Below are positions 1-36,332 of a stretch of DNA of 64,000 bases, piece by piece (the first letter of the stretch is position 1; every line of letters starts with the position of its first letter). This DNA is from Candidatus Wolfebacteria bacterium (GTDB lineage Bacteria > Patescibacteriota > Minisyncoccia > Phycocordibacterales > EsbW-18). A program made the position numbers and the translations under genes. A model generated the notes under the pieces. It saw only the letters and a program-made list of their open reading frames with translations, did no database searches and was not told where the DNA came from. The stretch is from contig JAKEFG010000015.1 in NCBI GenBank assembly GCA_022616195.1, positions 9,354 through 73,353 on the forward strand, read 5' to 3'.

Positions 1-8
1 GCTGGAGC

Positions 9-776
9 ATGGCGATGCTTATCATCATCTTTCCACTTTTTATTGTGCTCACTCGCATGGTGAACCAGAGTGTCCGACGGGAGCCTGCCAAAAAGGAGTT
101 GTGGATCAGACGCTGGCTTATCTACCTCACGCTTTTTATCGCAGGAGCGACGGTCGCTGTAGATCTTGTTGCTTTGGTAAACACCTTCCTTGGCGGGGAG
201 ATTACAGGGCGGTTTGCTGCCAAGGTGTTTGTGGTGTTTGTTGTTGCCCTCTCTGTGTTCGGCTACTATCTACTCTCCATTCGTGGTTATTGGGATACCC
301 GCGAGGCTACGTCAAAGCTCTTCGGGTGGGTTGTGGGGGTTGTTGCACTGGGTTCAATTATTGGAGGCTTCTTTATCATCGGTTCTCCCGCAACACAGCG
401 TGCGCTCCGTCTTGACCAGGAGCGCGTCTACAATCTCCAGAATATTCAGTGGCAGATTGTTGACTACTGGCAGAGCAAAGAAACGCTTCCGGCGGAACTC
501 GCATTGCTTGAGGATTCCATACGGGGATTCCGCGTGCCAGCTGACCCCGAGACAGGGGGACCGTATCGCTATGCGGTGACTGGCATGTATTCATTTGAGT
601 TGTGTGCGACATTTGTGCGCGCGAGTGCCGAAACACCCAAAGGAGTGCCGAGCACCCTACCGTACCGCGACGGAGGGCTGGACGAGAATTGGGAGCATGA
701 TGCGGGCGAGACATGCTTTACACGGACGATTGACCCGGAACTCTATCCACCTTATACCGAATCAGTAATCCGATAA
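9..776 (+). CDS. hypothetical multi-pass membrane protein; frame is open to the window edge, so the N-terminus may lie outside
   Basis: 255-aa ORF with at least four hydrophobic helices (IIIFPLFIVL, FIAGATVAVDLVALV, VFVVFVVALSVFGYYLL, GWVVGVVALGSIIGGFFII); no catalytic motif recognised. Confidence 0.5.
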   Translation: MAMLIIIFPLFIVLTRMVNQSVRREPAKKELWIRRWLIYLTLFIAGATVAVDLVALVNTFLGGEITGRFAAKVFVVFVVALSVFGYYLLSIRGYWDTREATSKLFGWVVGVVALGSIIGGFFIIGSPATQRALRLDQERVYNLQNIQWQIVDYWQSKETLPAELALLEDSIRGFRVPADPETGGPYRYAVTGMYSFELCATFVRASAETPKGVPSTLPYRDGGLDENWEHDAGETCFTRTIDPELYPPYTESVIR

Positions 777-857
777 CTAACGTACGATAAAAACATCGTC
801 CGCACTCATGCTACGTGAGGGCGGTTTGTTTCTGTGGTATAGTGTCATTCTACGGGG

Positions 858-3443
858 ATGGAACGCTATAACCACAAAGAAATAGAGAAGAGGTGGCAGA
901 AAAAGTGGAAAGAGCAAAAACTCTACGAAACGCCAGATACGGTGGAAGGGAAGGACAATTTTTACACGCTTGTGGAATTTCCGTATCCATCGGGTAATTT
1001 ACATGTTGGACATTGGTTTGCGTATATTGGTCCAGACATATTTGCACGCTTTATGCGTATGCAAGGAAAGAATGTACTTTTCCCGATCGGCTTTGATGCG
1101 TTTGGACTACCTGCTGAAAATGCTGCTATTAAGCGCGGTATTAATCCACGGGAGTGGACCTATTCGAACATCGCATACATGCGACAGCAGTTTGAAATGA
1201 TGGGAACCTCACTTGATTGGTCTCGAGAGATCATCTCGTGTGATCCCAGATATTATCGTTGGACACAGTGGCTCTTTCTGCAATTTTTCAAAAAAGGATT
1301 AGCATATCAAAAAGAAACGGAAGTGAACTGGTGTCCGTCGTGCAAGACGGTCTTGGCAAATGAGCAAGTGGTGACGGGTGTGTGTGAACGGTGTGGAACA
1401 GAAGTCGAAAAACGGCAGATGCTCCAATGGAATTTAAAAATCACCGACTATGCAGAGCGGCTCATTGATGATCTGGAAAAGCTCGATTGGCCAGAAGAAA
1501 TCAAACAAGCACAGCGGCATTGGATTGGTAGAAGTGAAGGTGCCCTCCTTACCTTTACTATCCAAGAACACAATGCGTCTGTAGAAATATTTACGACGCG
1601 TCCAGATACCTTGTTTGGTGCAACGTATCTGGTATTGGCTCCTGAACATACGCTCATTGAGTCCTTGAAAGATAAGATTACTAATTGGGATGAGGTGGAA
1701 GCGTATAGACAAACTGCACGGAAAAAAACAGATATTGAACGGACTGCTCTCGGAAAAGAAAAGACCGGAGTTGAGCTCCAGGGAATTACGGCACTCAATC
1801 CAGGCACGCAAGAGGAAATTTCCGTCTGGGTTGCTGATTATGTACTTTCTCACTATGGCACGGGCGCTATTATGGCGGTACCAGCACACGATGAGCGGGA
1901 TTTTGCGTTTGCACAGAAGTTTAACTTGGAAAAAGTTTGCGTTATCGAGCCGCGCTCTCTGGATGATTTTACCTTGCGCAAAATGCAGGGGGTGAGTGGG
2001 GAAGAAAAAATTACAGGTAGGGCTGTTGCATATTGGCCTGATGCCGGAGAGACACCGGAGCACGGTTTTAAGAGGGAGGTTGCCGCAATTCTTGCTGGAA
2101 AGTCCGTTTATGTCGGGGAAGGGACACTGGTGCACTCTGGAAAGTTTGATGGGATAACAACACAAGAGGCACGTGAGGCAATCACCAAAGCGGTTGGAGG
2201 CGAAATGAAAACAACCTACAAACTTCGCGACTGGACGGTGTCGCGACAGCGCTACTGGGGATGCCCGATTCCGGTCATTCACTGTGCAAAATGCGGTGTG
2301 GTACCCGTGCCGGAGCATGACCTACCGGTTGTGCTTCCCGAAATTGATGACTTCATACCGACAGGGAATGGTAAGTCGCCCTTAGCGAAAGTGGTGGATT
2401 GGGTGAATGTGAAATGCCCAGAATGTGGTGGAGATGCCGAGCGCGAGACCGACACCCTGGATACGTTTGTTGACTCGTCATGGTACTTTCTCCGCTACAC
2501 CGACCCGCACAACGACAAGGAGTTTGCATCGCGCGGGAAACAGGAGGCGTGGATGCCCGTTGGTTTCTATTCGGGTGGCGCGGAACACACGACCATGCAC
2601 CTTCTCTATTCCCGTTTCTTTCACAAGGTATTATTTGACCTCGGTTTGGTTGCCGACACGGAACCGTATGTTCGTAGAATGAATCGCGGACTCATCCTCG
2701 GTCCCGACGGCAACAAAATGAGCAAGTCAAAAGGAAACGTTATTGATCCCGATGATATGGTGGAGCGGCTCGGCGCGGATACCGTGCGGATGTATCTCGC
2801 GTTCATCGGTCCCTACAATGAAGTCGGCGCGTATCCGTGGAATCCGGACGGTGTTGTCGGTGTTCGACGGTTTCTTGAACGGGTGCATGTACTGGTTACA
2901 AAGATTGCAGAGGATAGGAAGAGACTGAAAGACGTCTCTGGCGGATCTGTTTTGATTCACAGAACTGTGAGGTTTGTAACTGAGGTTATCGGACGGCTCA
3001 AATTTAATACTGCCGTTGCACAACTCATGATTCAGTTTAATGGCGAGAATAGTGAACCTGATTGGCGAGGTAAACTTAATAACAAGGGAGAGTGGGAGAG
3101 TATGGAAGTAGACCTCATGGCCCTTAAGATGTTTTTAAAACTTCTTGCACCGTTCGCGCCGCACCTTGCGGAAGAATTGTGGTACCAACTGGGGAATACC
3201 ACCTCTGTCCATCTGGAGCCGTGGCCTGAGTACGACCCGACGCTCGTCGAGGAAGAACAGGTGACCATTGTGGTACAGGTGAACGGCAAGACGAGGGGAG
3301 AGTTCGAGGCAGCCCAAGATATTGATGAGACGGACGCGCGGGAGCGAGCACTTACTCTCCCGACGGTGGAAAAGTGGCTTGGGGGGAAGGAACCCAACAA
3401 AGTTGTCTATGTCCCCGGGCGGTTGGTAAATATCGTTGTCTAG
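858..3443 (+). CDS. leuS: leucyl-tRNA synthetase
   Basis: 861 aa; class I HIGH-type motif (PYPSGNLHVGHW), KMSKSKGNVIDP motif, CP1 editing region; ATG 14 nt downstream of TGgTATAGT extended -10 (835-843). Confidence 0.97.
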   Translation: MERYNHKEIEKRWQKKWKEQKLYETPDTVEGKDNFYTLVEFPYPSGNLHVGHWFAYIGPDIFARFMRMQGKNVLFPIGFDAFGLPAENAAIKRGINPREWTYSNIAYMRQQFEMMGTSLDWSREIISCDPRYYRWTQWLFLQFFKKGLAYQKETEVNWCPSCKTVLANEQVVTGVCERCGTEVEKRQMLQWNLKITDYAERLIDDLEKLDWPEEIKQAQRHWIGRSEGALLTFTIQEHNASVEIFTTRPDTLFGATYLVLAPEHTLIESLKDKITNWDEVEAYRQTARKKTDIERTALGKEKTGVELQGITALNPGTQEEISVWVADYVLSHYGTGAIMAVPAHDERDFAFAQKFNLEKVCVIEPRSLDDFTLRKMQGVSGEEKITGRAVAYWPDAGETPEHGFKREVAAILAGKSVYVGEGTLVHSGKFDGITTQEAREAITKAVGGEMKTTYKLRDWTVSRQRYWGCPIPVIHCAKCGVVPVPEHDLPVVLPEIDDFIPTGNGKSPLAKVVDWVNVKCPECGGDAERETDTLDTFVDSSWYFLRYTDPHNDKEFASRGKQEAWMPVGFYSGGAEHTTMHLLYSRFFHKVLFDLGLVADTEPYVRRMNRGLILGPDGNKMSKSKGNVIDPDDMVERLGADTVRMYLAFIGPYNEVGAYPWNPDGVVGVRRFLERVHVLVTKIAEDRKRLKDVSGGSVLIHRTVRFVTEVIGRLKFNTAVAQLMIQFNGENSEPDWRGKLNNKGEWESMEVDLMALKMFLKLLAPFAPHLAEELWYQLGNTTSVHLEPWPEYDPTLVEEEQVTIVVQVNGKTRGEFEAAQDIDETDARERALTLPTVEKWLGGKEPNKVVYVPGRLVNIVV

Positions 3444-3554
3444 AGGCGTTTCTGAGCTTGCCTTCTGCCATTTCTCAAGAAATGGTAGGGGGTTGACGGA
3501 GATAATGGTCGGTGCTAGAATGAGTGGCTGTGAGACAAGTACTACCTCTAAAAC

Positions 3555-3583
3555 TTGCACTTATTGCTCATTTGTGATATAGT
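3555..3583 (+). promoter_or_regulatory. sigma70-type promoter TTGCAC-17nt-TGaTATAGT; -10 ends 6 nt before ATG 3590 (leaderless mRNA implied); a second TTGACG-17-TAGAAT lies at ~3493-3521
   Basis: hexamers and spacing read directly from sequence. Confidence 0.5.
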
Positions 3584-3589
3584 GGTGCC

Positions 3590-4642
3590 ATGGCTACGAA
3601 AGCAAAATCGGAGAAAACGGTGAAATTGAACTTTGTCCCGAAACAGGTTGTCAAGCGCCTGCTTGCCGTGCTTCCTGATCGTGCTGTTGATGTCCTGACC
3701 CGTCGGTATGGACTCGGAAAGGACACCGGTCGTATGACGCTTGAAGCCATCGGTCAGATTTACGATATTACCCGAGAGCGCGTCAGACAGATCGAGAATT
3801 ACGCGCTCGGGGCCATCCGCAAGTCCGAAAGCTATGAGAAGGAAAGTAAGGCCATTGATGAGCTCGAGCGGCTCATCAACGCGATGGGGGTGGTTGTCCC
3901 GGAAGAATTTTTTCTCGATGAGGTTGCAAAGGACAAGAGCACCCAGAACTACATACACTTTCTGTTGGTGCTCGGTCACCCGTTCACTCGTTTCAAGGAA
4001 GACGAACATTTTACGCATCGCTGGCATATTGATGCAGATGTCGCCCGTGGTGTTGAGGAGGCGCTGAAGAACTTGTACGCGTCACTGCCGGACGAAGAGC
4101 TTCTGTCGGAGCCGGAGCTCATGACGAGATTTCTGTCACATCTCAAAGAGCTCGCGGACCAGTACCGCGACGAAGAAATTCTGAAACGCTGGCTTTCGCT
4201 CTCGAAGAAAATTGCCAAAAGCCCTCTGGGCGATTGGGGACGTGTTGAGTCAACTGCGGTGAGCCCCCGCGGCATTCGCGACTATGCGTATCTGGTGATT
4301 CTTCGGCACGGCTCACCGCTCCACTTCACCGAAGTGGCGAAACAAATCAGCAAGCTATTTGACCGGCGGGCACACACTGCAACCGCGCACAACGAGCTCA
4401 TAAAGGACCAACGGTTCGTGCTTGTCGGACGCGGGCTCTATGCACTCTCGGAGTGGGGATACATGCAAGGTGTCGTCAAAGACGTTATTGTCGAGATTCT
4501 CAAACAGCACGGTCCGCTGACCAAAGAGGAAATCATTGACCGGGTGCTCAAGGAACGCTACGTGAAGGGAAATACTATCGCGGTCAATCTGCAGGATCCG
4601 ATGTTTAAGAGGACAAAGGACGGGAAGTACGCGCTCGCGTAG
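3590..4642 (+). CDS. sigma-70 region-4-like HTH protein with ~280-aa uncharacterised C-terminal extension (not a complete sigma factor)
   Basis: N-terminal LLAVLPDRAVDVLTRRYGLG..TLEAIGQIYDITRERVRQIENYALGAIRK matches sigma70 region 4 / FliA-type HTH; regions 2 and 3 absent; remainder helical with no known motif. Confidence 0.8.
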   Translation: MATKAKSEKTVKLNFVPKQVVKRLLAVLPDRAVDVLTRRYGLGKDTGRMTLEAIGQIYDITRERVRQIENYALGAIRKSESYEKESKAIDELERLINAMGVVVPEEFFLDEVAKDKSTQNYIHFLLVLGHPFTRFKEDEHFTHRWHIDADVARGVEEALKNLYASLPDEELLSEPELMTRFLSHLKELADQYRDEEILKRWLSLSKKIAKSPLGDWGRVESTAVSPRGIRDYAYLVILRHGSPLHFTEVAKQISKLFDRRAHTATAHNELIKDQRFVLVGRGLYALSEWGYMQGVVKDVIVEILKQHGPLTKEEIIDRVLKERYVKGNTIAVNLQDPMFKRTKDGKYALA

Positions 4643-4784
4643 CAGCTCGGAACACTCTCCTTCAAAATTCCAGATGCCTGCATGCGCCGCTCTTGAGCGG
4701 CTGTTGGGCTCTGTTGTTAACAGAAACATACAGCTGGTATACATTCGCGGCAGAAACCAGTGGTGTGTTGGGAAGGAGGTTCAG

Positions 4785-5117
4785 ATGGAGAAAGAGGAAA
4801 TCCTACATCAAGCAAATGAGATCGTCGGCGAGCACGGTCTTGTCGCCGAGCTTCTTGAAGGGGTTCTATCTGTAGGTGTTGGTGGGGATGAGCGAACCTA
4901 CTTACCCGTGCTTTGTCTGCGGGGTTCGTTTCCAGGCGACGCTTCGAGAGATTTCTACCAAGCTCACGAACGAGTTACCTATCAACAGGGTGACATTCGA
5001 GCTTGCTCGTGCGTCCCAGTAACAGCGGAGTCACGTGTCTCGGGAAGTTATCGTACGGCGGCTTCCCCGTTTCTTTTCCTGCGAACCACTTACTACCCAC
5101 TACAAACTACGGACTGA
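4785..5117 (+). pseudogene. guaA: relic of GMP synthase C-terminal (dimerisation) domain; ATP-PPase and GATase domains absent
   Basis: GVLSVGVGGDERTYLPVLCLRGSFPGDASRDFYQAHERVTY aligns with GuaA C-terminal consensus ([39 protein letters not shown]); sequence after this diverges; strong SD AGGAGG 5 nt upstream and TGgTATACA -10 at ~4735-4743. Confidence 0.45.
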
Positions 5118-5134
5118 AGTGGTATCATGACAGC

Positions 5135-6430
5135 ATGGACATTCTCCGTGAACTTTTTACCGGTCCGGGTCTTAACCTCACTCTGAGCGGTCTGCGCCTG
5201 CTTGCGCTTGCCGCGCCGGTGTGGCTGCCGCTTGTGCTCGGTATCGGTTTTTGGAAGGTGTGGGTAGGGTATCGGCGAGCGGCGTTTATTAGTAGCATGG
5301 AGTGGGTATTTCTCGAGATTCTATTACCCCAGGAAATCACCCGCTCGCCGCTCGCCATGGAACTGGTGCTCAATACGTTCCAACAGAGCTTTGGCGAGGC
5401 GCATGCATATGAAAAGTACTGGAAAGGTGGGGTGCGTCCGTGGACGTCGCTTGAGCTTGTATCTGTTGAAGGATCCGTGCATTTCATCATCCGGATACAT
5501 AAGGGAAGCCGTGCACTCATCGAGTCACAGATTTACGCAGAATATCCCGATGTCGAGATACACGAGGTTCCTGACTATATCCACGGCATTGATTTCGACA
5601 ATGAACTCGTGCAGTTATGGGGCGCTGAGTTTGCGCTTACCAAAGCCGACCCGTATCCTATCAAAACCTACGTCGACTACGGTCTCGATCGCGATCCGAA
5701 AGAAGAGCAAAAGATAGATCCGATTGCGCCGGTCATTGAATGGCTCGGCTCGCTCGGTGCCGGCGAGCAGGCATGGATTCAAATACTCGTTCGTCAGCAT
5801 AAGGACGAAACGCCTAAAATGGTCGGACCGTTCCGAAAACTTGTTGAGTTCAAGGCAGACAAGAAAAAGCTCTCCGAAAAAATCAAGTTCTTCCCGACGA
5901 CTGATGCATGGAAGGATGCAGTAAAGAAAGAAATCGAGAAAGTCGTGAAGGAGCGGAAAATCCAGAGTAAGGATGAGGAAAGCGGTCCCGTGAAACTCAC
6001 GCGCATGGAAGAAGAGGTCATCACGGCGCTCGAGCGGAGCATCACCAAGGCGGCATTCGATGTTGGTATTCGCGGTATGTATGTCGCTGAAAAGGACAAG
6101 TTCAATCCGGCGAACATCGGCGGGCTCATCGGCTCGTTCAAGCAGTACAGCACGAATCACCTCAATGGCTTCAAGCCGGGTAAGACCACCGGCGTGAAAG
6201 CGCCCTGGCAGGACCCGTTCGGCACGCGGGTGCCGAGGCGCAAGCGCATCATGCTTGATGCCTACAAGCGCCGGAGTTATTTTCATTCGCCGTACAAGCG
6301 CAAGCCTTTCATTCTGAACACGGAAGAGCTCGCGACGATGTATCACTTCCCGGGACGCGTTTCTACGACGCCGACATTCAAGCGTCTTGAGGCACGAAAG
6401 GCGGAGCCACCAGCACACTTGCCGATGTAA
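5135..6430 (+). CDS. conserved hypothetical protein, N-terminal membrane anchor (LRLLALAAPVWLPLVLGIGFW), charged helical middle, C-terminal FILNTEELATMYHFPG motif
   Basis: long ORF with good coding character; start chosen at ATG 5135 because the upstream part of the ORF overlaps the guaA relic in another frame. Confidence 0.7.
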   Translation: MDILRELFTGPGLNLTLSGLRLLALAAPVWLPLVLGIGFWKVWVGYRRAAFISSMEWVFLEILLPQEITRSPLAMELVLNTFQQSFGEAHAYEKYWKGGVRPWTSLELVSVEGSVHFIIRIHKGSRALIESQIYAEYPDVEIHEVPDYIHGIDFDNELVQLWGAEFALTKADPYPIKTYVDYGLDRDPKEEQKIDPIAPVIEWLGSLGAGEQAWIQILVRQHKDETPKMVGPFRKLVEFKADKKKLSEKIKFFPTTDAWKDAVKKEIEKVVKERKIQSKDEESGPVKLTRMEEEVITALERSITKAAFDVGIRGMYVAEKDKFNPANIGGLIGSFKQYSTNHLNGFKPGKTTGVKAPWQDPFGTRVPRRKRIMLDAYKRRSYFHSPYKRKPFILNTEELATMYHFPGRVSTTPTFKRLEARKAEPPAHLPM

Positions 6431-6438
6431 TTCGACGT

Positions 6439-7407
6439 ATGACACGTCTTCTTGACTCGGTGAATACATTCCTGCCGCTTTCGTGTCTCACGGCGATTGC
6501 TGTTTTACTTGGGACAGCCTTGGTTCTTGTGGTGAGTCCGCCGCATGACTTTCCGAAAGGACAAGTAGTGGTGATCCCATATGGGGCAACACTCTCCGAG
6601 GTCGCTCGTGAGTTTGACTCACTTCAGTTGGTGAGATTTTCCACAGTGCTCAAATCGGTGATTCTGTTGCTCGGAGCATCTGAAACCATTCAGGCTGGTG
6701 ATTATATGTTTGCCGAACCGGTTGGTGTGATTACTTTGGGGCAGCGTATTGTGCGCGGAGACTTTGGATTGGATTACATCAAGGTACGTCTACCCGAGGG
6801 TGCTACACGGTATGTAATGGCAGATATTCTTACGGCAGCGCTACCGCACTTTGAGCGGGAACAATTTCTTGAGATAACAGAGGGATATGAAGGGTTTTTG
6901 TTTCCAGATACATACTTCTTTTCTCCTTCAGTAACTACCGAGGACGTTATGAACGCCCTGAGAGAGACTTTTGTTGAGAGGACAAGACCACTGAGAGATG
7001 AGGTGGCAGTGTCAGGGCATTCGTTTAGCGAGATTGTAACTATGGCATCGCTTGTAGAGCGTGAGGCACACGATCCGAGAGACCGGCGTCTTATCTCTGG
7101 AGTTTTGTGGAGACGTATTGCTATTGATATGCCGCTTCAGGTTGATGCGCCGTTCGTGGCACTCTTTGGTAAGGCATCTCATGAATTGACGCAAGACGAC
7201 CTTGCAACAACATCGCCGTACAACACGTATGTCCACAAGGGACTTCCACCAGAGCCTATTGGAAGCCCAGGACTTGATGCCATCCACGCCGCCCTTGACC
7301 CAACGGAATCGGACTACCTCTACTACCTTTCAGATACTAAAGGGGTGACCTATTACGCCGTCACATTTGAAGAGCACAAACGAAACAGAGAAATGTACCT
7401 CAACTAG
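6439..7407 (+). CDS. mltG: endolytic murein transglycosylase MltG/YceG
   Basis: N-terminal TM, YceG-like domain, C-terminal YNTYVHKGLPPEPIGSPG motif. Confidence 0.88.
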   Translation: MTRLLDSVNTFLPLSCLTAIAVLLGTALVLVVSPPHDFPKGQVVVIPYGATLSEVAREFDSLQLVRFSTVLKSVILLLGASETIQAGDYMFAEPVGVITLGQRIVRGDFGLDYIKVRLPEGATRYVMADILTAALPHFEREQFLEITEGYEGFLFPDTYFFSPSVTTEDVMNALRETFVERTRPLRDEVAVSGHSFSEIVTMASLVEREAHDPRDRRLISGVLWRRIAIDMPLQVDAPFVALFGKASHELTQDDLATTSPYNTYVHKGLPPEPIGSPGLDAIHAALDPTESDYLYYLSDTKGVTYYAVTFEEHKRNREMYLN

Positions 7408-7473
7408 GCCTTTATTGAGTAACCTTCGGTATGTTCGTACCCAGTGCTCTGCACATGATTTCCACAGAGCGGC

Positions 7474-7501
7474 TTGACTCTCAATTGCGAGGGAGTATAC
7501 T
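7474..7501 (+). promoter_or_regulatory. sigma70-type promoter TTGACT-16nt-TATACT upstream of the 23S-5S locus
   Basis: consensus-like hexamers. Confidence 0.5.
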
Positions 7502-7581
7502 TGGGGTATATATGAAAGCGACACAGAACTACATAGAGAGGCGGAGAACGTAGCTAGGCTATTTTGGTAGTGTGCCAAGTC

Positions 7582-7604
7582 TCCGCTCCGAGAGCGGATT
7601 TTTT
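7582..7604 (+). terminator. intrinsic-terminator-like hairpin (tccgctc-cga-gagcgga) followed by TTTTTT, ~75-95 nt downstream of the 7474 promoter
   Basis: 7-bp GC-rich stem plus T6 tract. Confidence 0.5.
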
Positions 7605-7614
7605 AGTTCTTGTT

Positions 7615-7650
7615 CCCGAGGTGCAACCTGTTCGCAGGTTGCACCTCGGG
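7615..7650 (+). other. perfect 16-bp stem hairpin with UUCG tetraloop (cccgaggtgcaacctg-ttcg-caggttgcacctcggg) in the 23S leader
   Basis: exact inverted repeat. Confidence 0.7.
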
Positions 7651-8330
7651 AGACGGAACGGAAAACACGATGGGCTGACTGGACGTTGACAAGCAAATAC
7701 ACGATAGAGAATCAAAGTCTCCGCTGACACGCGATGCGTACAGGCGGAGCAAGCAGGTAATTAAGTAAGGTATCAATGCTTGACATTGATACGCGGTTTT
7801 TAGATTTCCTAATAGGAGATCTGATAAGGGCGCACGGTGGATGCCTTGGCTCTAAACGGCGATGAAGGACGCGGCATGGCGGCGATATGCTTCGGGGAGG
7901 TGCCTAGCAACCTACGATCCGGAGATTTCCGAATGGGGAAACCCTGCGAGGTCAACCCTCGTGATCCTCTGATTCATCAGAGGAGGCACACCCGGGGAAG
8001 TGAAACATCTCAGTACCCGGAGGAACAGAGACTAATAAGTATTTCCTGAGTAGCGGCGAGCGAAATGGAAGAAGCCCAAACTCTGTGAAGCGAAAGCTAT
8101 GCAGAGGGTAGTAGGGTAACAACGTCATCTTTGATGAGGAGAGTTATAAAATGTTCTTCGTTAGCTGAATTCGTTGGAAAGCGAAGCCCGAGAGGGTAAT
8201 AGCCCCGTAATGCGAAAACGGAATGTCTCTCTTGTTGTTATTCCTGAGTACCCCGAGACATGAATAGCTCGGGGGAATCTGCCGGTACTAACCGGTAAGG
8301 CTAAATACGTTTAGAGACCGATAGTGAACC

Positions 8331-8361
<31 letters not shown>

Positions 8362-9636
8362 GGAGAGGGGGGTGAAATAGACCTGAAACCGTGCGTCTAC
8401 AAGGAGTCGAAGTGTCTTTTGGCACAACGGCGTGCCTATTGAAGAATGAGCCAACGAGTGTACGTGTACTGCTCGGCTAAGTCCTTTGTCGGACGAAGCC
8501 ACAGGGAAACCGAGTGTTAACAGCGCGAACTATAACTTTTTGCCGTGCGTGTGTTTCCTAGGACGCATGGTAAAGAGTTATCTGTAGTACATGTACGACC
8601 CGAAGCCGGGTGATCTACCCATGACCAGGGTGAACCTTACCGAAAGGTGGGGGGAGGCCCGAACCGATACGCGGTACAAAACGTTCGGATGAGTTGTGGG
8701 TCGGAGTGAAAAGCTAATCGAACCCGGTAATAGCTGGTTCTCTCCGAAATAGCTTTAGGGCTAGCGTTATGTGTTTCCCTCGGGGGTAGAGCACTGGAAG
8801 GAGTAGACAGGGCGAAAGCTCGCTTCTCCTATCAAACTCCGAATACCGAGGGTTAGAGCATAGCAGTTAGACTATGGGCGCTAAGGTCCATTGGTCAAAA
8901 GGGAAACAGCCCAGACCTCAAGCTAAGGTCCCTAAATCGACACTAAGTGCACGTAAGGAGGTGCAATTTCTCTGACACTGAGGAGGTTGGCTTAGAAGCA
9001 GCCATCCTTTAAAGAAAGCGTAACAGCTCACTCACTTAGAGATTGTGCGCCGCAAATAATCGGGGCTAAGTGTCGTACCGACGCTGAGGATTGTATCCCG
9101 TTTCGACGGGGTGCAGTGGTAGGAGAGCATTTCTATTGCTATGAAGCCCCTGTGTAAACCGGGGTGGAGCGATGGGAAGAGAGAATGTTGGCACAAGTAA
9201 CCGCAAGGCAGGTGCGATCCCTGCCCGCCGAAATCCCAAGGTTTCCTTGGCAATGTCAATCAGCCAAGGGTTAGTCGGTCCTAAGGAGATGGCGAAAGCC
9301 GTATCCGATGGACACACGGTTAATATTCCGTGACTTCCTGTTCATTCGATGGAGTAACGGAGGGTTGTACACGTTGCACATTATTGGATTTGTGTGCATG
9401 CTTTGAGGGAGTCAGTTAGGCAAATCCGGCTGACGCCACCCCGAGAAGTGTGCGGAATTCCGCTACGGCGGGAGAACAACGTGGAGCACGCTCCCGAGAA
9501 AAACTTCTAAGGTTCATGTCCAGGAAACCGTACCGCAAACCGACACAGGTGGGAAGGTCGAGAAGACCAAGGCGAACGGGTGAGAGATCCTCAAGGAACT
9601 CGGCAAAAAAGCGGCCGTAAGTTCGCAATAAGGCCT

Positions 9637-10028
9637 CCCAGCACTAGATTAAGTTCTTAAATGTAAACAGTAAGGAGAAAAAGCATGACAAATGAGCAGT
9701 ACCTAAAGGCAATCGGTGAAATGAAAAAAATAATACCGGCAGAAATTTTACCGGAGAGGATTGACACAAGCCGTAAATTCTCTGAAACTTCTGTAGAACA
9801 GAAGTTAAAACATTCTCTATATTTGTTAGAGAATGTCCCGACTTTTCTCGAGGTAGGAAAACGAGAAAAATCATCAAGACATTTAGCTTTTGCTCAGGCA
9901 ATCCTTTGGTCTTTGGACATGTTGGCAATCGACCAATTAATGGATTTCAACAGAAGATGATCATAATCGGGTGGTGATGATTATTTTTCACGCTCCCCGA
10001 ATTTTTAAGAATTTAATCTAGTGCTGGG
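9637..10028 (+). other. IVS-like insertion in a variable 23S helix (approx. E. coli helix 63 region), closed by a ~25-bp stem with one G-U; ~340 nt inserted
   Basis: cccagcactagattaagttcttaaa ... tttaagaatttaatctagtgctggg are reverse complements; flanking sequence continues into GACTGTTTACCAAAAACACAG (E. coli ~1770-1785). Confidence 0.65.
9685..9960 (+). CDS. 91-aa protein encoded inside the 23S IVS-like insertion (hypothetical, all-helical)
   Basis: ATG preceded by TAAGGAG 7 nt upstream; terminator-like hairpin plus T-run after the stop (~9955-9990). Confidence 0.55.
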   Translation: MTNEQYLKAIGEMKKIIPAEILPERIDTSRKFSETSVEQKLKHSLYLLENVPTFLEVGKREKSSRHLAFAQAILWSLDMLAIDQLMDFNRR

Positions 10029-10224: not shown

Positions 10225-10883
10225 CAATTCCTTGTCTGGTAAGTTCAGACGTGCACGAATGGCGTAACGACTGGGGAACTGTCTCGAGGATTCGCCCGGT
10301 GAAAATGCAATGGGGGTGAAGATGCCCTCTACCTGCAGTTAGACGAAAAGACCCCAGGAGCTTTACTGTAACTTGATAGTGGGGGTACGTAGTATATGCG
10401 TAGCATAGGTGGGAGACGTTGAAGCGAAGGTCTCGGCTTTCGTAGAGTCGCCAGTGAAATACCACTCTTATATAGCGTGCTTTCTAACCTCGACGGCAAA
10501 AACGGCGGGGGACAGTATCTGGTAGGCAGTTTTAGTGGGGCGCTATCCTCCTAAAAAGTAACGGAGGAGCCTATTACGGTCAGCTAGGCGCGAATGGAAA
10601 CCGTGCCGATAGTGTAATGGCAGAAGCTGGCCTGACTGCAAGGGGTACATCCCGAGCAGGCGCGAAAGCGGAGCATAGTGAACCGAGAGTTCCCTTTAGA
10701 CGGGGCTCGAGATTAACGGATAAAAGTTACCCTGGGGATAACAGGCTGGTCCTGCCTAAGAGTCCATATCGACGGCAGGGTTCGGCACCTCGATGTCGGC
10801 TCACCGTATCCTGGCGCTGGAGAAGGTGCCAAGGGTTTGGCTGTTCGCCAATTAAAACGGTACGCGAGCTGGGTTCAGACCGT

Positions 10884-11360
10884 TCTGGGCATGAATCATA
10901 AGATATGAATCATGAATAGAGCAGTCTGAATCCGCTCATAACGACACAATCGTTTTTTCGTCTATGAAATAAGTCCCGATTTTGATGTATCAAAATCGAG
11001 GATCCCGACCAGAGCGTCGGGAATAGAATCAACCTAATCACGGCGGTCATGTGTAGTAATACGCATGTATCAAGCTGACCCCGATTTTGATGTATCAAAT
11101 CGAGGATCCCGACCAGAGCGTCGGGACTAATATCGGTGAATTTCTAGCTTCTAGGTAAGAAGAAGGAGGACACCGAGGGAATGGTTCGACTTTGCTCACC
11201 ACGAGCAAATAGAATTCGGCCCGTAGAGACTGAACGTCAGCGTTCCTTACTCATGTTTTGTGTTATACGCGACATGTGTTGGGAATATGCTACAGTCCGA
11301 TCCCGCCGGTAACGGCGGTGTGGCTAGACGCTAGGAGCTAGCGGCTAGTTGCTACAGTTG
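10884..11360 (+). mobile_element. ORF-less group-I-like intron inserted exactly after U2593 (E. coli numbering) of 23S
   Basis: exon reads GGGUUCAGACCGU | CGUGAGACAGG, matching E. coli G2581-U2593 | C2594-G2603; 5' exon ends in U and insert ends in G, as for group I introns; longest ORF <65 aa. Confidence 0.6.
10975..11126 (+). repeat. two direct copies (10975-11022 and 11080-11126) of a 48-bp element, each made of two hairpins (cgattttgat-gta-atcaaaatcg and tcccgac-cagagc-gtcggga), separated by 57 nt, inside the L2593 intron
   Basis: copies identical except one A in the A-run. Confidence 0.85.
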
Positions 11361-11423
11361 CGTGAGACAGGTTGGTCTCCTATCTACTGCAGGCGTTGAT
11401 TCTTGAGGGGAGCTGCTCCTAGT

Positions 11424-12251
11424 AAGTAATTGCTACTCTTCGGAGAGATCCGAAGTGACAATGTGGCTTATAACGGTGAAGCCTTCATATGATTACTGTC
11501 CGAGGATTGTGAATAGCTATTGGTCCAGCTATGGTATAATTCGCTTGCGGACCGTAATCCGCTGCAAGGTAATACCGTGGGAAGTCGATCTCAAACACAC
11601 ACAGCGTATATAGCGGGTTTTCTTGATGGTGACGGCAGTTTGATGCTGCAGATCAAAAAACGATCTGATACAAAACGAGGTATTCGTTTTATGGCAACAA
11701 TCTGTCTGTATCAAGATACTCGCCATGAGAGGCCGCTGTGCTGGATGCGTGAAGTTTTAGGCATTGGATATCTATCTCGACGCCGTGACGGCATTACAGA
11801 GTTACGTATCAATGGCTTTAGTCAGTGCAAAACAATTCTTGAACAACTAGTACCGTATATACGGTTTAAGAAGGTTCAAGTGAGTGCATTGCTCGAGGCA
11901 TGTACGGTACTGTGTACGACGCCGTTTTCAAAGCTCACGAAACAACAGCAGAAGTATTTGGTTGACCGTATTGTGATCATTCAACATGAAAACTATACAA
12001 CCAAGTCAAAAAAGCGTAGGGAAGAGCTGTATGCATGTTTGGATTTGACCCCGTAACGACTTGTTCATGTAGTTGCCACTACATGGCGGACTTGCTGATG
12101 TATTGAATCAGGAATGTATTCCTGACAATCTCAGTGGGTAACATGCCGCCACCCTCGTCCTCCATCTCATGGGGAACGGGTGAAGATATAGTCTATGCTC
12201 CTGGAAACAGGGGAGTAATCTTGTTTTTCAAAAGTGAAACAAGAGATACAT
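11424..12251 (+). mobile_element. 828-nt intron in the sarcin-ricin loop of 23S (after U2656), carrying a LAGLIDADG homing-endonuclease gene
   Basis: flanking exons join to GCUGCUCCUAGU|ACGAGAGGACCGGAGUGGAC, identical to the E. coli SRL sequence; 5' exon ends U and insert ends G. Confidence 0.75.
11520..12056 (+). CDS. single-motif LAGLIDADG homing endonuclease, I-CreI-like
   Basis: YIAGFLDGDGS motif; ~170 aa; GIGYLSRRRDG and LEQLVPYIRFKKVQVSALLEAC segments parallel I-CreI GVGYVRDRGS / FLTQLQPFLKLKQKQANLVLKII; ORF-track start is TTG 11520; in-frame GTG 11577 lies after a perfect TGgTATAAT (11531-11539). Confidence 0.85.
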   Translation: MVQLWYNSLADRNPLQGNTVGSRSQTHTAYIAGFLDGDGSLMLQIKKRSDTKRGIRFMATICLYQDTRHERPLCWMREVLGIGYLSRRRDGITELRINGFSQCKTILEQLVPYIRFKKVQVSALLEACTVLCTTPFSKLTKQQQKYLVDRIVIIQHENYTTKSKKRREELYACLDLTP

Positions 12252-12545
12252 GACGAGAGGACCGGAGTGGACTGACCGCTGGTGTACGAGCTGTCCTGCC
12301 AAGGGCATCGCTCGGTAGCTATGTCGGGACGGGATAACTTCTGAAAGCATCTAAGAAGGAAGCCCACCCCAAGATTAGGAATCATTAAGACCCGTGAGAG
12401 ATGATCACGTTGATAGGCACCAGGTGGAAGCACAGTAATGTGTTGAGCCGAGGTGTACTAATTCGTCGAGTATCTCCTATTAGGGAATCTGAAAATCGCT
12501 TAGTTCCTGCTTTTCTATCGTGTAGGCGACTGACTTTAAGTGTTG

Positions 12546-12656
12546 TGTGTTGGTGGTTCGACGCTGTGGAGACACCCGTTCTCATTCCGAACACGGCAGT
12601 TAAGCACAGTAGTGGCGATGGTACTCGCAAGGGGAGAGTAGCTAGCCGCCAACACA
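12546..12656 (+). rRNA. rrf: 5S ribosomal RNA
   Basis: CCGUUCUCAUUCCGAACACGG..GUAGUGGCGAUGGUACUCGCAAGGGGAGAGUAGCUAGCCGCC; ends pair as helix I. Confidence 0.85.
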
Positions 12657-12675
12657 CAGCACTTAACTTCTAAAA

Positions 12676-31648: not shown

Positions 31649-32848
31649 ATGGAAGAAGAATTTGCACAACTGAAGAGTCAACTTGAAACAATTCGTCTCT
31701 CTGCGGCGGAGCGTGAGCGCGTGCATGCGGTGCTTTCGGAATACGTCACGCACCGGCCTGTGTCGCGCGGCTCTGCGCCGGCGCCTGTGGGATACGCGTG
31801 GTTTGCCGTACACCGTTTTGTCGCGGTGGTTGCCGTAGCGCTTGTCGTAGTACTTTTTGGTGGAACGGTCTCATATGCCGCGGAGGGGGCGCTTCCCGGC
31901 GATGCGCTCTATGCGGTGAAAGTGGGCGTCAACGAGCCGCTTCGCGACACGTTCGCGCGCACGCCCGAACATAGAGCGACGCGGGAGGTTGATAAGGTGA
32001 ATCGTCGGCTTGCGGAAGCGGAGACGCTTGCCGCAGAAGGGCGTCTCAATGCGGCGCTCCGTGAGGATATCGAAACGCGTGTCACTGTGCATCTTGCCGC
32101 GGCGGAAGCACGCGTCGCGATGCTCAAAACCGACACGGATATCGCCGAAACGCTTGATGCGACGCTTGACGTGCACGACAGTATCCTCGCCTCGCTTGGG
32201 GAAGACGAGGTGGACGGCGAGGAAGTGGGCGTGCTTCTTGCGCGCGTGCGCACCGTGACGTCTCTACGGGCACACGAATACGGAAGGAGCGGGGGCGAGG
32301 AGCCGCAGGCACCAATGATGGCGCTCCAGACACCGTCTCCCTCTGCGGACGAAGAAGAACAACAAGCGGCGGCGGAAAGCGGCGCAGAGGCGGACCTTGC
32401 GGCAGAGATAACGGAGGTGGGGGCGGAGCTGGATACACTCCAGGAACGTGCTCTCTTAGGGCGTCCCAACGTGCGCATTTCGGTGCGCGAGGAGGCGGAG
32501 CGTCTTCTCAACGCGGCTGACAGAGCGCTTGCGGATGCCGACAAGGAACTTGCGAAAGGAGAATTTGAAACAGCGGAAGAAAAACTCACACTCGCGCGGC
32601 GCGCACTGCACCGCGCGACGATCGTGCTCAACGCCGCACTGCGGCTTCCGGAGAACATCAAACTTTTTCCCGTCCGGCTTCCGGAAAACGGTAGTGACGC
32701 TGACGCGCAAAATGGCGACGGCGACGTTGAGAGCGCGTCGGTGGGGAGTGACCGAGAGGGCAATGACGACGGTGAAGACAGAGAAGAATCACGGCGCGGC
32801 TCGTCACGCGAAGACGACGATGGACGGACGCGAAGGGGAGCAGGTTGA
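31649..32848 (+). CDS. putative anti-sigma factor (cytoplasmic N-term, one TM, DUF5667-like extracytoplasmic helical domain, highly acidic tail)
   Basis: starts 5 nt after the ECF stop; TM AWFAVHRFVAVVAVALVVVLFGG; Ala/Arg/Glu-rich coiled region; C-terminal DADAQNGDGDVESASVGSDREGNDDGEDREE. Confidence 0.7.
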   Translation: MEEEFAQLKSQLETIRLSAAERERVHAVLSEYVTHRPVSRGSAPAPVGYAWFAVHRFVAVVAVALVVVLFGGTVSYAAEGALPGDALYAVKVGVNEPLRDTFARTPEHRATREVDKVNRRLAEAETLAAEGRLNAALREDIETRVTVHLAAAEARVAMLKTDTDIAETLDATLDVHDSILASLGEDEVDGEEVGVLLARVRTVTSLRAHEYGRSGGEEPQAPMMALQTPSPSADEEEQQAAAESGAEADLAAEITEVGAELDTLQERALLGRPNVRISVREEAERLLNAADRALADADKELAKGEFETAEEKLTLARRALHRATIVLNAALRLPENIKLFPVRLPENGSDADAQNGDGDVESASVGSDREGNDDGEDREESRRGSSREDDDGRTRRGAG

Positions 32849-32878
32849 GAATATCCTGAAATTTTAGGATGCGGATGG

Positions 32879-34780
32879 TTACTTACTCGTGAACCGGTAC
32901 ACGCCGTCCCAACGCTCGGGGGGCTGCTGTTTGAATTCCCGCGCCCGCTCAAGAAGGAGCGCGGACGGACCGTCTGGTTCTGTAGCGAGCGCCTCGTTGA
33001 ATGCAGCGATTGCTCTGTCCCAGTCGCCCCGCTCGTACGCCGCCCGTCCGCGCTCATAGTGTTCAAAAAGTGTTTGGTGTGCGGGTGTCACGCCGCGCGC
33101 GATGAGCTCATAGAGGGCGCGCGGCTCGCTTTTGCCTTTGACCGCGACGCGGTCAAGGAGACGTGTGGGAAGGTCGGGTAGGGCGGCAATTGCGTCGCGG
33201 GTGTTTTCTCCAATAAGGATAGGGACGCCGTACGCTTTGGTGAGCCCCTCGAGGCGCGACGAGAAGTTCACTTCGTCGCCGACGATGGTGTAGTTGAAAC
33301 GTTTCGCGGAGCCCATGTTACCCACGACGACCTCGCCCGTCGAGATGCCGATGCCGATGCGGATTTCCGGCTTACCGTCTTTCTTCCATGTTTTGTTGAG
33401 CATATCAAGTATGGCAATCATGGCGAGCGCTCCGCGGCAGGCGTGCTCCGCGTGCGTGGGGTCGTCAATCGGTGCCCCCCAGAACGCCATAATCGCATCC
33501 CCGATGTATTTATCGACGAGTCCGCGATGTTCCAAAATAGTGTCCGTCATTGCCGAGAGATATTCGTTGAGGCGCTCCGTGAGTTCTTCGGGCGAGAGCG
33601 ACTCCGAGAGTGTGGTGAATCCGCGGATGTCGGAGAAGAGAATGGAGAGCGTTTTTCGTTTGCCCCCGAGCGAGAGCTTTGAAGGGTCGCGGACGAGTTC
33701 GTTCACAACCTCGGGTGCAAGGTAGTACTGGAACGTGGTGCGGATGAATTGTTTTTCGCGCGCCTCGGTTGCGTATTGGTACACGACGCCTCCCCCTGCG
33801 GCGAGGATGAACGCGAGCTCAAGATAGAGCACGGGAGTGACGAGATACACGCCGAAGAGCGCCGCCGCCACGAGGTAGATGAGGCCGACGCCGAGAGCGA
33901 ACAGAACGATGAGCGGCAGGGTTTTTCGGATGAATGCCGCGAGAAGCGTTGCGAGAAATGCGGCGAGGGCGATGCCAAGGACACCCCACGGGCGCGGCAA
34001 ATCGCGGAAGCGGCTCGGCGATTCAAGTGTCGCGAGCGCGTTCGCCTGAAACTCAACGCCCGGCATGAGCCCCACGGGCGTTTCAACGCTGTCTTTGAGG
34101 TCGGGCGCGGTGGCGCCGATGAGCACCGTTTTGTGAGCGAAAACGTCTTCGGGTACCGTACCCTCGAGCACGTCTATAAGCGAAATGGTCGGGAACGTTT
34201 CGGCAGGCCCCCGCCAATCAATTCGTGCGGTTTCGGGAATTACCGCAGTTTTTCCCGCAAGCGCTTCCGCGAAGCTCGGCCTACCGAGCGCCATGAGACG
34301 CACAGCGCCGTCCGCGTCGAGGGAGACATTCACCGCCCCGAGGGAAACGTTCTCTCCCGTGAGGGAAGGGAGCGGCCCGAAGCTGTTTCCGGTGCGCGGG
34401 TCTATAAAGAGTGGCAGGACGACGCGCCCCGGAAACGTCCGGAGCGCCTCCGCAAGCCGGTTATCGTCAAATGCGCCCACTCGCGACGGCTCCGCGAAAT
34501 TAACGTCAATGCCGACGACCTCGGCCCTACGGAGGCGCGCGATGGCGTCGGCAAACACGGCGCGCGGCCACGGCCACTGACCGACTGCGCGCAAACTTCT
34601 GTCGTCAATCGCGATAATGAGAATGTCTCGCGGCGGGTCTTTTCGTATAACAAACCGGTCAAGGATATTTTCCTCGGCGGTATCAAGCGCTCCGGAGAGG
34701 TAGAGCGCTCCGGCGAGAAGGGCGGCGATGAGCGCGACGAGCGCGAGACCGATGTGCCGACGGTGGAGAAAAACACCCAT
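32879..34780 (-). CDS. CHASE2 sensor - class III adenylate/guanylate cyclase (with C-terminal TPR-like segment)
   Basis: CHASE2 region (ILIIAIDDRSLRAVGQWPWPRAVFADAIARL), TM bundle, cyclase core LSILFSDIRGFTTLSE..KYIGDAIMAFWGAP..GISTGEVVVGNMGS. Confidence 0.88.
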   Translation of the reverse strand: MGVFLHRRHIGLALVALIAALLAGALYLSGALDTAEENILDRFVIRKDPPRDILIIAIDDRSLRAVGQWPWPRAVFADAIARLRRAEVVGIDVNFAEPSRVGAFDDNRLAEALRTFPGRVVLPLFIDPRTGNSFGPLPSLTGENVSLGAVNVSLDADGAVRLMALGRPSFAEALAGKTAVIPETARIDWRGPAETFPTISLIDVLEGTVPEDVFAHKTVLIGATAPDLKDSVETPVGLMPGVEFQANALATLESPSRFRDLPRPWGVLGIALAAFLATLLAAFIRKTLPLIVLFALGVGLIYLVAAALFGVYLVTPVLYLELAFILAAGGGVVYQYATEAREKQFIRTTFQYYLAPEVVNELVRDPSKLSLGGKRKTLSILFSDIRGFTTLSESLSPEELTERLNEYLSAMTDTILEHRGLVDKYIGDAIMAFWGAPIDDPTHAEHACRGALAMIAILDMLNKTWKKDGKPEIRIGIGISTGEVVVGNMGSAKRFNYTIVGDEVNFSSRLEGLTKAYGVPILIGENTRDAIAALPDLPTRLLDRVAVKGKSEPRALYELIARGVTPAHQTLFEHYERGRAAYERGDWDRAIAAFNEALATEPDGPSALLLERAREFKQQPPERWDGVYRFTSK

Positions 34781-34783
34781 GGT

Positions 34784-35860: not shown

Positions 35861-35918
35861 GAACCTATCCTACGCTTCTCGCGGGTGCGGAGCAAGGAAA
35901 GGTGAAAGACCTGTTATT

Positions 35919-36332
35919 TTATTGCCAGACCGCGAGAATGATGCCCATCACAAGCAGATTTACGAGGTCGTAGCCGATGTTGAGGAAGTAGAGTTTCCAC
36001 GGGCGCATCTCCCAGAGAACGGAGCCGAGCTTGGTGGTCACGAAGAAACCGAGCCAGACGAGAAAGCCGAGCGTGAGACCGCCGGTCACGCCCGCGACAC
36101 CGAGTGAAGAAATGAGGTAGGCGAGCGTGAACGCGGTGACGAGCGCGCCGATGAAGCCAATGATATACGACTTCATCATCCCCTTCTTTTTACCCGCATC
36201 CATCTGTAGAGGGGTGATACCCATAAGCGCCATCCACGGTTTGCCGAAGAGCGGACCGTACCAGAGGGAGCCAATGCCCATGGCGACGATGCCCGCAACA
36301 AGGACAGCAAGATAGTTGATATCTCCAAACAT
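35919..36332 (-). CDS. DUF1761-family membrane protein
   Basis: MFGDINYLAVLVAGIVAMGIGSLWYGPLFGKPW N-terminus, 4 TM. Confidence 0.65.
   Translation of the reverse strand: MFGDINYLAVLVAGIVAMGIGSLWYGPLFGKPWMALMGITPLQMDAGKKKGMMKSYIIGFIGALVTAFTLAYLISSLGVAGVTGGLTLGFLVWLGFFVTTKLGSVLWEMRPWKLYFLNIGYDLVNLLVMGIILAVWQ

Follow-up and report, generated by a model that had tools for sequence, protein, structure and literature searches.

The 23S ribosomal RNA (rRNA) gene of a Candidatus Wolfebacteria bacterium (Patescibacteriota; assembly GCA_022616195.1, contig JAKEFG010000015.1) lies in a 64,000-nt stretch of DNA, which was analysed as a whole and is referred to as the window. At window positions 10884-11360 it is interrupted by a group I intron that contains two direct copies of a 48-nt double-hairpin unit, at 10975-11022 and 11080-11126, and no protein-coding gene. 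The insertion site, L2593, is that between positions 2593 and 2594 of the Escherichia coli gene. On balance, the two units are best explained as a small palindromic repeat, resembling repetitive extragenic palindromic (REP) sequences and miniature inverted-repeat transposable elements (MITEs), which occupies two permissive sites of the intron and whose second copy is a recent duplicate of the first. The duplicated module is real and of modest novelty, probably representing a new small Patescibacteria repeat family caught inside a ribozyme.

Two copies of a 48-nt double-hairpin unit in one intron

The copies, both on the plus strand, were recovered by repeat search at the positions reported in the first-pass annotation, and are identical but for one A lost from the A-run of copy 2. 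Detection yielded a 20-nt block of 100% and a 38-nt block of 92% identity (flanks included) at a spacing of 104-105 nt, and shuffled versions of the window gave zero such matches. Copy 1 folds with −25.2 kcal/mol (z −4.8) and copy 2 with −19.0 kcal/mol (z −3.3), each into two adjacent hairpins. The double-hairpin layout described at first pass stands in both copies; the loop of the first hairpin is revised from gta to gt. This first hairpin, cgattttgat-gt-atcaaaatcg, is effectively a 9-bp stem on a UGUA loop, and counted outward as far as UCC...(A)GGA its stem reaches about 13 bp, with one A bulged out. The second hairpin, TCCCGAC-CAGAGC-GTCGGGA, is the 20-mer TCCCGACCAGAGCGTCGGGA. In module 1 (10975..11022) hairpin a spans approximately 10974-11002 and hairpin b (UCCCGAC-CAGAGC-GUCGGGA) spans 11003-11022, while in module 2, delimited at 11080..11127 by comparison with relatives and lying between helix P3 and the joining segment J3/4, hairpin b spans 11107-11126.

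Both modules occupy sites that are empty in most relatives

Relatives of the intron were collected by a metagenome scan, in which the pattern consisted of two conserved core strands common to the window intron and L021, a Paceibacterota metagenome-assembled genome (MAG) found by the hairpin scan described below. L021 carries an insert of ~480 nt at the same rRNA position, and its rRNA is 74-90% identical to that of the window; together with the intron family and the insertion sites typical of CPR, this identity points to Patescibacteria as the source of the window. The scan returned at least 120 loci, and among the matches listed there were 33 distinct inserts of 302-648 nt with L2593 exons; all family counts below refer to these listed matches. 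Measured from the start of the P3 5′ strand to the start of P4 (UCGG...), the distance is 10 nt in 31 other distinct relatives, 58 nt in the window and ~61 nt in L021. The sequence GCUGAC-UAAUA-UCGGUG runs uninterrupted in L093 and L066 and reads GCUGAC-(48 nt)-UAAUA-UCGGUG in the window. Because P3 pairs perfectly and covaries, and because the relatives are uninterrupted there, module 2 is a clean 48-nt insert at the boundary of P3 and J3/4. Of the 33 distinct family members, 31 lack module 2 and most lack module 1, and the same core is kept in them.

Module 1 is separated by 15 nt from the internal guide sequence downstream of it and lies in a variable stretch where the short relatives have one simple hairpin. 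L131 has the same flanks as the window (UUUUUUCGUCUAUGAAA...AAGAAACCAACC) without module 1, L063 likewise lacks it, and double hairpins are found at this site in L110, L041/L101 and L021. Among the listed matches L110 looks like the closest relative of the window intron: the two have in common the variant GCAGUCUGAAUCC of a 5′ segment termed the B element (see below) and an AU-rich first hairpin, CGAUUUUGAU..AU(C/U)AAAAUCG. Since L110 has the module 1 hairpin but not module 2, the simplest reading of module 2 is that it was recently copied from module 1, and a recent duplication is also indicated because copy 2 has kept the lineage-specific AU-rich first hairpin of copy 1, one deleted A apart. 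In L021, which belongs to a different lineage, a different hairpin pair sits at the same P3/J3-4 site, and modules are found at both sites. That the P3/J3-4 site is filled in the two lineages means either that the insertion is old and was later lost precisely elsewhere, or that the site is a preferred one and was entered independently; at ~60% core identity the comparison is too noisy to separate descent from independent gain of module 2 in the window and L021.

Neither module coincides with a standard peripheral helix position (P2.1, P5abc, P6a/b or P9.x), and we know of no group I peripheral domain that is placed between P3 and J3/4. With module 2 located there and module 1 upstream of the guide, the option raised at first pass of a duplicated peripheral domain such as P5abc or P9.x is not supported. 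The combination of findings that, according to the first-pass annotation, would have refuted its own reading, namely occurrence nowhere else together with a standard helix position, is contradicted on both counts, as copies outside introns were also identified.

The unit also occurs outside introns

An exact-match scan for TCCCGACCAGAGCGTCGGGA over one genome per species (596 Gb, both strands) found the hairpin in 21 genome loci, compared with ~1 expected by chance according to our arithmetic; the window's own organism was not among the 21. Nine of these loci are Patescibacteria, and in several MAGs the exact hairpin is present on two contigs or more. The tandem layout CCCGAC-variable loop-GUCGGG(G/A)-UCCCGAC-CAGAGC-GUCGGGA is found in seven free-standing copies, six of which lie within the nine Patescibacteria loci and one in the unclassified MAG L013. 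The L004 copy directly follows the stop codon of recA, those of L008, L013 and L014 precede tRNA genes by 25-61 nt on the same strand, those of L016 and L019 are intergenic, and that of L021 is in the 23S-5S spacer, antisense to the rRNA. The first hairpin of the L014 copy has CGAUUUUG..AAAAUCG, as in the window.

Free-standing copies occur in both orientations, and the proteins encoded by the ten flanking open reading frames (ORFs), including RecA, Mur ligase, RecQ, a sulfatase, a tetratricopeptide repeat protein and similar ones, are housekeeping proteins unrelated to each other. No transposase was found among these ten ORFs, nor any enzyme candidate for the spread of the unit, and no Rfam family was matched on the free-standing copies. 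A 5′ GTAG is present in 2 of 11 copies and ATAG in another 2 of 11. As to viral carriers, IMG/VR contained one 18-mer match, which was judged not to be an enrichment, a judgement made without a computed chance expectation. Long first hairpins were misaligned by MAFFT. Two candidate assignments were rejected: a reading of the double hairpins in the Candidate Phyla Radiation (CPR) as terminators, as they are not consistently followed by T-runs and none of the seven tandem copies is; and a CCCGAC hairpin at position 2296 of L021 as a further element, as it is the apex of a native rRNA helix.

In Chitinophagales and Kuenenbacteria, the same hairpin tips a longer intergenic palindrome of the form GGRGATTGCTTCG-stem-CARAGC-stem′-CTCGCAATGAC. 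Its inner stem is variable (none, GGT/ACC, GGC/GCC or TCCCGAC/GTCGGGA), and its outer stem differs by phylum (ATTGC/GCAAT versus ATCTC/GAGAT). These units are mostly followed by a T-run and often occur as inverted pairs; the carriers are L002, L003, L005, L006, L009 and L017 (Chitinophagales and unclassified MAGs) and L019 and L022 (Kuenenbacteria). A CTTCG direct repeat flanks the inner (single) hairpin in L019 and L022 only.

A proposed passenger repeat and its alternatives

The favoured reading takes the unit to be a small repeat that has occupied two structurally permissive places in the intron. One would be the variable stretch flanked by the 5′ splice-site helix and the guide, and the other the junction of the P3 5′ strand with J3/4. 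Each unit is predicted to fold by itself into two autonomous hairpins, which would leave P1/P10 and the P3-P9 core free to form; because the units pair with themselves, the intron could still splice and the element would be tolerated as a passenger. Copy 2 would have arisen from copy 1 by a local hop or by gene conversion. From the sequences compared here we infer that the unit may be mobile at the DNA level, that it may be a neutral passenger and that the intron would continue to splice. Among the options offered at first pass, the MITE-like one is the best supported, with the unit present elsewhere and 48 nt present or absent among relatives.

Several observations weigh against the unit being such a repeat. 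No third copy was detected in the 64-kb window, even when two mismatches were allowed. Neither a transposase nor terminal inverted repeats nor a clear target-site duplication was seen with the copies, and the junction of module 2 shows only a 1-nt ambiguous C; by the strict definition of a MITE, which requires terminal inverted repeats, a target-site duplication and a related insertion sequence (IS), the unit does not qualify, as it consists of two internal palindromes and not of end repeats. Module 1 recurs at one site in four divergent introns, and its stems show a compensatory change (CCCGAU/AUCGGG in L041) and G.U pairs, a pattern that selection on RNA would fit as well. With modules at the same two sites, L021 could point to an ancestral architecture with two modules instead of repeated insertion. 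GC-rich, terminator-like CCCGA..UCGGG stems are also common in CPR contigs, and part of the first-hairpin similarity could be generic, and the exact match demanded by the genome scan accounts in part for the conserved CAGAGC loop. Exact-protein look-ups for strain variants returned two short Logan contigs from run SRR16971108, neither of which reaches the intron.

Some of these observations are shared with the main rival explanation, which we regard as unlikely: that the modules are functional peripheral RNA domains, serving either as a platform for a protein cofactor or chaperone or as a folding or tertiary-contact element, that the free-standing copies act in RNA processing, and that the duplication supplied a second functional copy. 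The kept position of module 1 in the window, L110, L041/L101 and L021 with its compensatory and G.U changes, the two occupied sites of L021, the sense orientation of all intron copies, and the location of four of the seven free-standing copies in likely pre-tRNA or pre-rRNA transcripts are what such a function would lead one to expect. However, the same core is found in the 31 of 33 family members missing module 2 and in the majority missing module 1, and the loops of the intron copies are unconserved (CAGAGC, CAAAGC, UGAAAU and UGAAAC). Moreover, free-standing copies lie in both orientations beside unrelated genes, and the P3-J3/4 site is, as noted, no recognised place for a peripheral domain.

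Generic similarity is a weaker rival, and quite improbable. It would have CCCGA..UCGGG hairpins be ordinary CPR terminators or stabilisers, with an intron hairpin expanded and then duplicated internally by slippage or recombination, and no mobile family at all. Terminator-like CCCGA..UCGGG stems followed by T-runs do occur in the CPR contigs L059, L093 and L103, the composite elements of Chitinophagales and Kuenenbacteria are followed by T-runs as well, and the lack of an extra copy in the 64-kb window agrees with a purely local origin. Against it stand the 20/20 identity, including a 6-nt loop, in 21 loci where ~1 was expected, the tandem two-hairpin layout in seven free-standing copies without a following T-run, and the clean insertion of a whole unit at a second site that L021 may have used independently.

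Two further explanations are essentially excluded. An assembly artefact, in which a repeat-induced metagenome misjoin created the duplication, is very improbable: the organism is present in one public run only and its other assemblies are interrupted close to the rRNA operon, but the flanks of the two copies complete a canonical intron, with P3 before the module and J3/4-P4 after it, modules fill the same two sites in the independently assembled L021, and the window copies differ by an indel. The suggestion made at first pass that the modules derive from a degraded homing-endonuclease gene (HEG) has a negligible probability, since, although CPR introns at 2593 often carry LAGLIDADG genes (PMC11270868), the intron shows no coding signal (no ORF above 62 aa, and that one on the minus strand, without a credible Pfam match), the unit is a 48-nt palindromic structure with intergenic copies, and none of the 33 relatives (≤648 nt) has an HEG at the module sites.

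With the passenger-repeat reading retained, the modules point to a small palindromic repeat family in Patescibacteria that is as yet undescribed; no description of such repeats in Patescibacteria was found in the literature. The tiny genomes of this group are thought to be poor in mobile DNA. The modules also mark two sites at which a group I ribozyme would accommodate ~50 nt of foreign structure, the P3/J3-4 one being next to the catalytic core, which could be of use for ribozyme engineering and intron annotation. A wider proposal, which we hold to be rather doubtful, is that the unit belongs to a mobile bacterial 'double-hairpin element', the first non-organellar counterpart of such elements, which prefers structured-RNA genes of Patescibacteria (a ribozyme core junction, an rRNA spacer, tRNA leaders) and whose apical CARAGC hairpin recurs in intergenic elements of several phyla. 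If that were true, the sharing of the CARAGC hairpin among Chitinophagales, Kuenenbacteria, Gemmatimonadales and Acidobacteria would imply a conserved, hairpin-specific trans-acting factor that spreads or maintains the elements in widely differing bacteria.

Site, coding content and anatomy of the intron

The 23S gene breaks at 10883/10884 and resumes at 11361 (GGGTTCAGACCGT|tctggg...cagttg|CGTGAGACAG), and a gapless alignment with the annotated E. coli 23S gene puts the junction of the ligated exons at T2593|C2594. The intron thus comprises window 10884-11360 (477 nt), directly after U2593 as annotated at first pass, and lies at the insertion site of the Chlamydomonas chloroplast intron Cr.LSU and at CPR site 23IS12. 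The last 13 nt of the 5′ exon (GGGUUCAGACCGU, 10871..10883) end at U2593, and the exon segment 11361..11423, corresponding by alignment to E. coli 2594-2656, separates this intron from a second one. The longest ORF overlapping the intron, on the minus strand at 10910-11098, has a TTG start and encodes 62 aa, and the three longest intron ORFs gave no credible match in Pfam, which agrees with the earlier statement that no protein is encoded. The HEG of the window 23S gene is located in the second intron (site 2656/2657) and not in the L2593 intron.

Group I identity was evaluated from junctions, covariation and folding, the minimum free energy z-score of the whole intron being −7.3. The Rfam model Intron_gpI (RF00028) matched 11043-11319 with 19.7 bits (E = 0.009 in a 506-nt search), which does not reach its gathering threshold of 50 bits; apart from this weak match and a spurious 5.8S match, no Rfam family was found on the module or the whole intron. 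L115, a short relative without modules, scored 29.2 bits and is also below the threshold, and because of this the low score is a property of the whole family and not a defect of the window copy. The guide UCACG-GCGGUC (UCACGGCGGUC, 11038..11048), conserved in 29 relatives, is complementary to the ligated exons GACCGU|CGUGA: G11043 is opposite U2593 and forms the G.U pair at the 5′ splice site in P1, and P10 forms with the 3′ exon CGUGA. Together with the terminal omega-G at 11360 and a P3-P8 core with a covariation-supported P3/P7 pseudoknot, the G.U pair, P1 and P10 are the features by which group I introns are recognised. On sequence evidence, then, window 10884-11360 is a canonical HEG-less group I intron of the CPR/Patescibacteria 2593 family, and its splicing is predicted.

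All parts of the intron lie on the plus strand. A 5′-proximal hairpin (CAUGAAUCAUAAGAUAUGAAUCAUG, 10890..10914), identified by folding, has a counterpart of variable sequence in every family member. The B element, AGAGCAGUCUGAAUCC (10918..10933), pairs with exon positions −13..−1 and intron nucleotides 1-3 as an alternative to P1. Downstream of the guide follow P2 with a GUAA tetraloop (11048..11067), a GNRA-capped hairpin being present at the same place in relatives, and the P3 5′ strand GCUGAC (11074..11079), whose partner GUCAGC at 11236-11241 is supported by family covariation. After module 2 come J3/4 (UAAUA), P4 (11133-11138/11171-11176), P5 (11141-11170) and P6 (11177-11222), which together span 11128..11222. 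The segment 11223..11298 comprises J6/7, the P7 5′ strand (11226-11232), the P3 3′ strand (11236-11241), P8 (11243-11285), J8/7 and the P7 3′ strand (11293-11298), and P9, with a GUAA tetraloop, and P9.1 occupy 11303..11355 according to folding and family comparison.

Covariation was assessed in an alignment of 21 relatives built from fixed-length helix strands, with segments chosen by sequence anchors. Pairing was retained in 94.3% of cells over the B helix, P3, P4, P6 and P7, compared with 22-47% in controls with slid partners. Both-sided pair changes numbered 10, with four in the B helix, four among the 6 pairs of P3, and one each in P4 and P7. Because two of the anchors came from the search pattern, P6 and the greater part of P7 are invariant by construction. 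The R and S elements are conserved, and P7 shows a G-C/A-U covariation (11 versus 10 sequences).

The B element was found in 28 of 28 anchor-bearing relatives, with compensatory changes at four pairs. In all L2593-family loci a 16-position helix is formed by the last 13 exon and first three intron nucleotides (10871-10886) with ACAGU(C/U)UGAACCC (10918-10933). U2593 faces an A in 18 of 21 sequences, which rules out the B helix as the catalytic P1. The short P1 is formed by the guide ~100-200 nt downstream, and the B helix has to compete with this P1 or stack on it. The B segment resembles the 3′ strand of 23S helix 93.

The L2593 intron family and its setting

Family members have a common layout, which in the 5′ part consists of a hairpin, the B element ACAGU(C/U)UGAACCC, a variable stretch, the guide (C/A)UCACG-GCGG(U/C) and a GNRA-capped P2, and in the core of P3, a 5-nt J3/4, P4-P6, the R element GUAGAGACU(R)AA, P8, the S element, a GUAA-capped P9 and a terminal G. 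Core-sequence identity is ~55-67% among 29 aligned introns. As the family stays below the Rfam threshold (19.7 and 29.2 bits), surveys may file such introns as unclassified; the inserts and the long 5′ region help to explain the under-scoring, and such introns may consequently be under-counted.

The intron itself is ordinary: group I introns without an ORF are routine at 2593 in CPR, and nothing about it is new in this respect. Positions 2593 and 2657 are group I hot spots in CPR 23S genes, in which 222 ORF-less introns have been counted (Tsurumaki et al., 2024; PMC11270868). The CPR introns of that survey resemble the window intron in site and in the common lack of an ORF, and site 2657 is listed as well, compared with the window's LAGLIDADG intron at 2656/2657; unlike the present case, no internal repeats or hairpin modules are described, the words 'hairpin' and 'repeat' being absent from its text.

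Cr.LSU encodes I-CreI and belongs to class IA3, a subgroup with the extra helices P7.1/P7.2 between the P3 3′ strand and P8. In the window intron one nucleotide separates the P3 3′ strand (11236-11241) from P8 (11243-11285), and P7.1/P7.2 are absent, so the intron is not assigned to IA3. Both introns are group I and lie after U2593, but the window intron has neither an ORF nor P7.1/P7.2; because P3′ abuts P8, the likeness to Cr.LSU is one of position alone, and the first-pass label 'Cr.LSU/I-CreI-type' is to be read in that sense.

About 85 of the at least 120 loci with the core pattern (GTAGAGACTRAAYGT...AGTCCRATCC), within L023-L142, are AT-rich introns that are not at L2593. In the single one inspected (L048), the upstream ORF is LAGLIDADG-like by eye, and the AT-rich set may be organellar. 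This overlap suggests that the bacterial L2593 family has catalytic-core sequences in common with these AT-rich introns. One core-pattern contig, L054, has eight CCCGAY...RTCGGG palindromes in ~6 kb (4062-9671), which look like organellar hairpin or GC-cluster repeats. L021 contains a further 23S group I intron at 3477-3752, which passes the Rfam threshold with 71.3 bits, and has no intron at 2656/2657.

The 23S gene begins at window position 7814 and is followed by the 5S gene at 12549-12654; the surroundings are bacterial and gene-dense, YceG lying upstream, FtsW downstream and rpoB/rpoC at 19.6-26.5 kb. The second group I-type intron (11424-12252) follows U2656/A2657 in the sarcin-ricin loop region, at the CPR '2657' hot spot, and ends in G; its ORF at 11520-12056 encodes a LAGLIDADG_1 domain (E = 7.5e-10), and Intron_gpI matches it weakly at 11954-12214 (21.3 bits). 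No 16S gene or spacer tRNAs were found before the 23S gene (window 1-7800), and because YceG (6439-7407) is directly upstream, the 23S-5S unit is unlinked from 16S. A perfect 16-bp hairpin, CCCGAGGUGCAACCUG-UUCG-CAGGUUGCACCUCGGG (7596-7668), lies ~150 nt upstream of the 23S 5′ end and gave spurious miRNA matches, and a 21-nt inverted repeat around the 5S gene (12536-12666) is probably a processing stem. The GC content is 0.61 at 32000-36000 compared with ~0.51 elsewhere in the window.

Comparison with known small repeats and mobile introns

The double-hairpin elements of Allomyces, the repetitive hairpin-forming elements of sponges (PMC2800124) and the GC clusters of yeast mitochondria (PMC4478555) are, like the window unit, short non-coding units of adjacent hairpins. 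They also resemble it in having intergenic copies as well as copies in introns or rRNA regions, in presence or absence at orthologous sites, and in the lack of a transposase of their own. In behaviour the unit thus conforms to a double-hairpin element, and no sequence relationship is claimed. The mitochondrial elements are organellar and unrelated in sequence, whereas the window unit is bacterial, has one copy at a ribozyme core junction, and is mobile only by inference.

With REP sequences, bacterial interspersed mosaic elements and MITEs the unit has in common that it is short, palindromic and intergenic, has a conserved stem, recurs as the exact hairpin on two or more contigs in several MAGs, and lies between convergent or tandem genes; in the window the two intron copies are the only ones. 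It differs from them in that no partner, either a REP-associated tyrosine transposase or an IS, was identified among the ten flanking ORFs, that GTAG precedes just 2 of 11 copies, and that terminal inverted repeats and a clear target-site duplication are lacking. Its apical hairpin is common to several phyla, which is unusual for REP sequences.

IStrons (PMC4227781) offer a parallel of another kind, in that mobile DNA is joined to a group I ribozyme and the insertion is harmless to the host gene. In IStrons, however, a full IS with its transposase stands next to the ribozyme, whereas in the window a 48-nt non-coding hairpin pair lies inside it.

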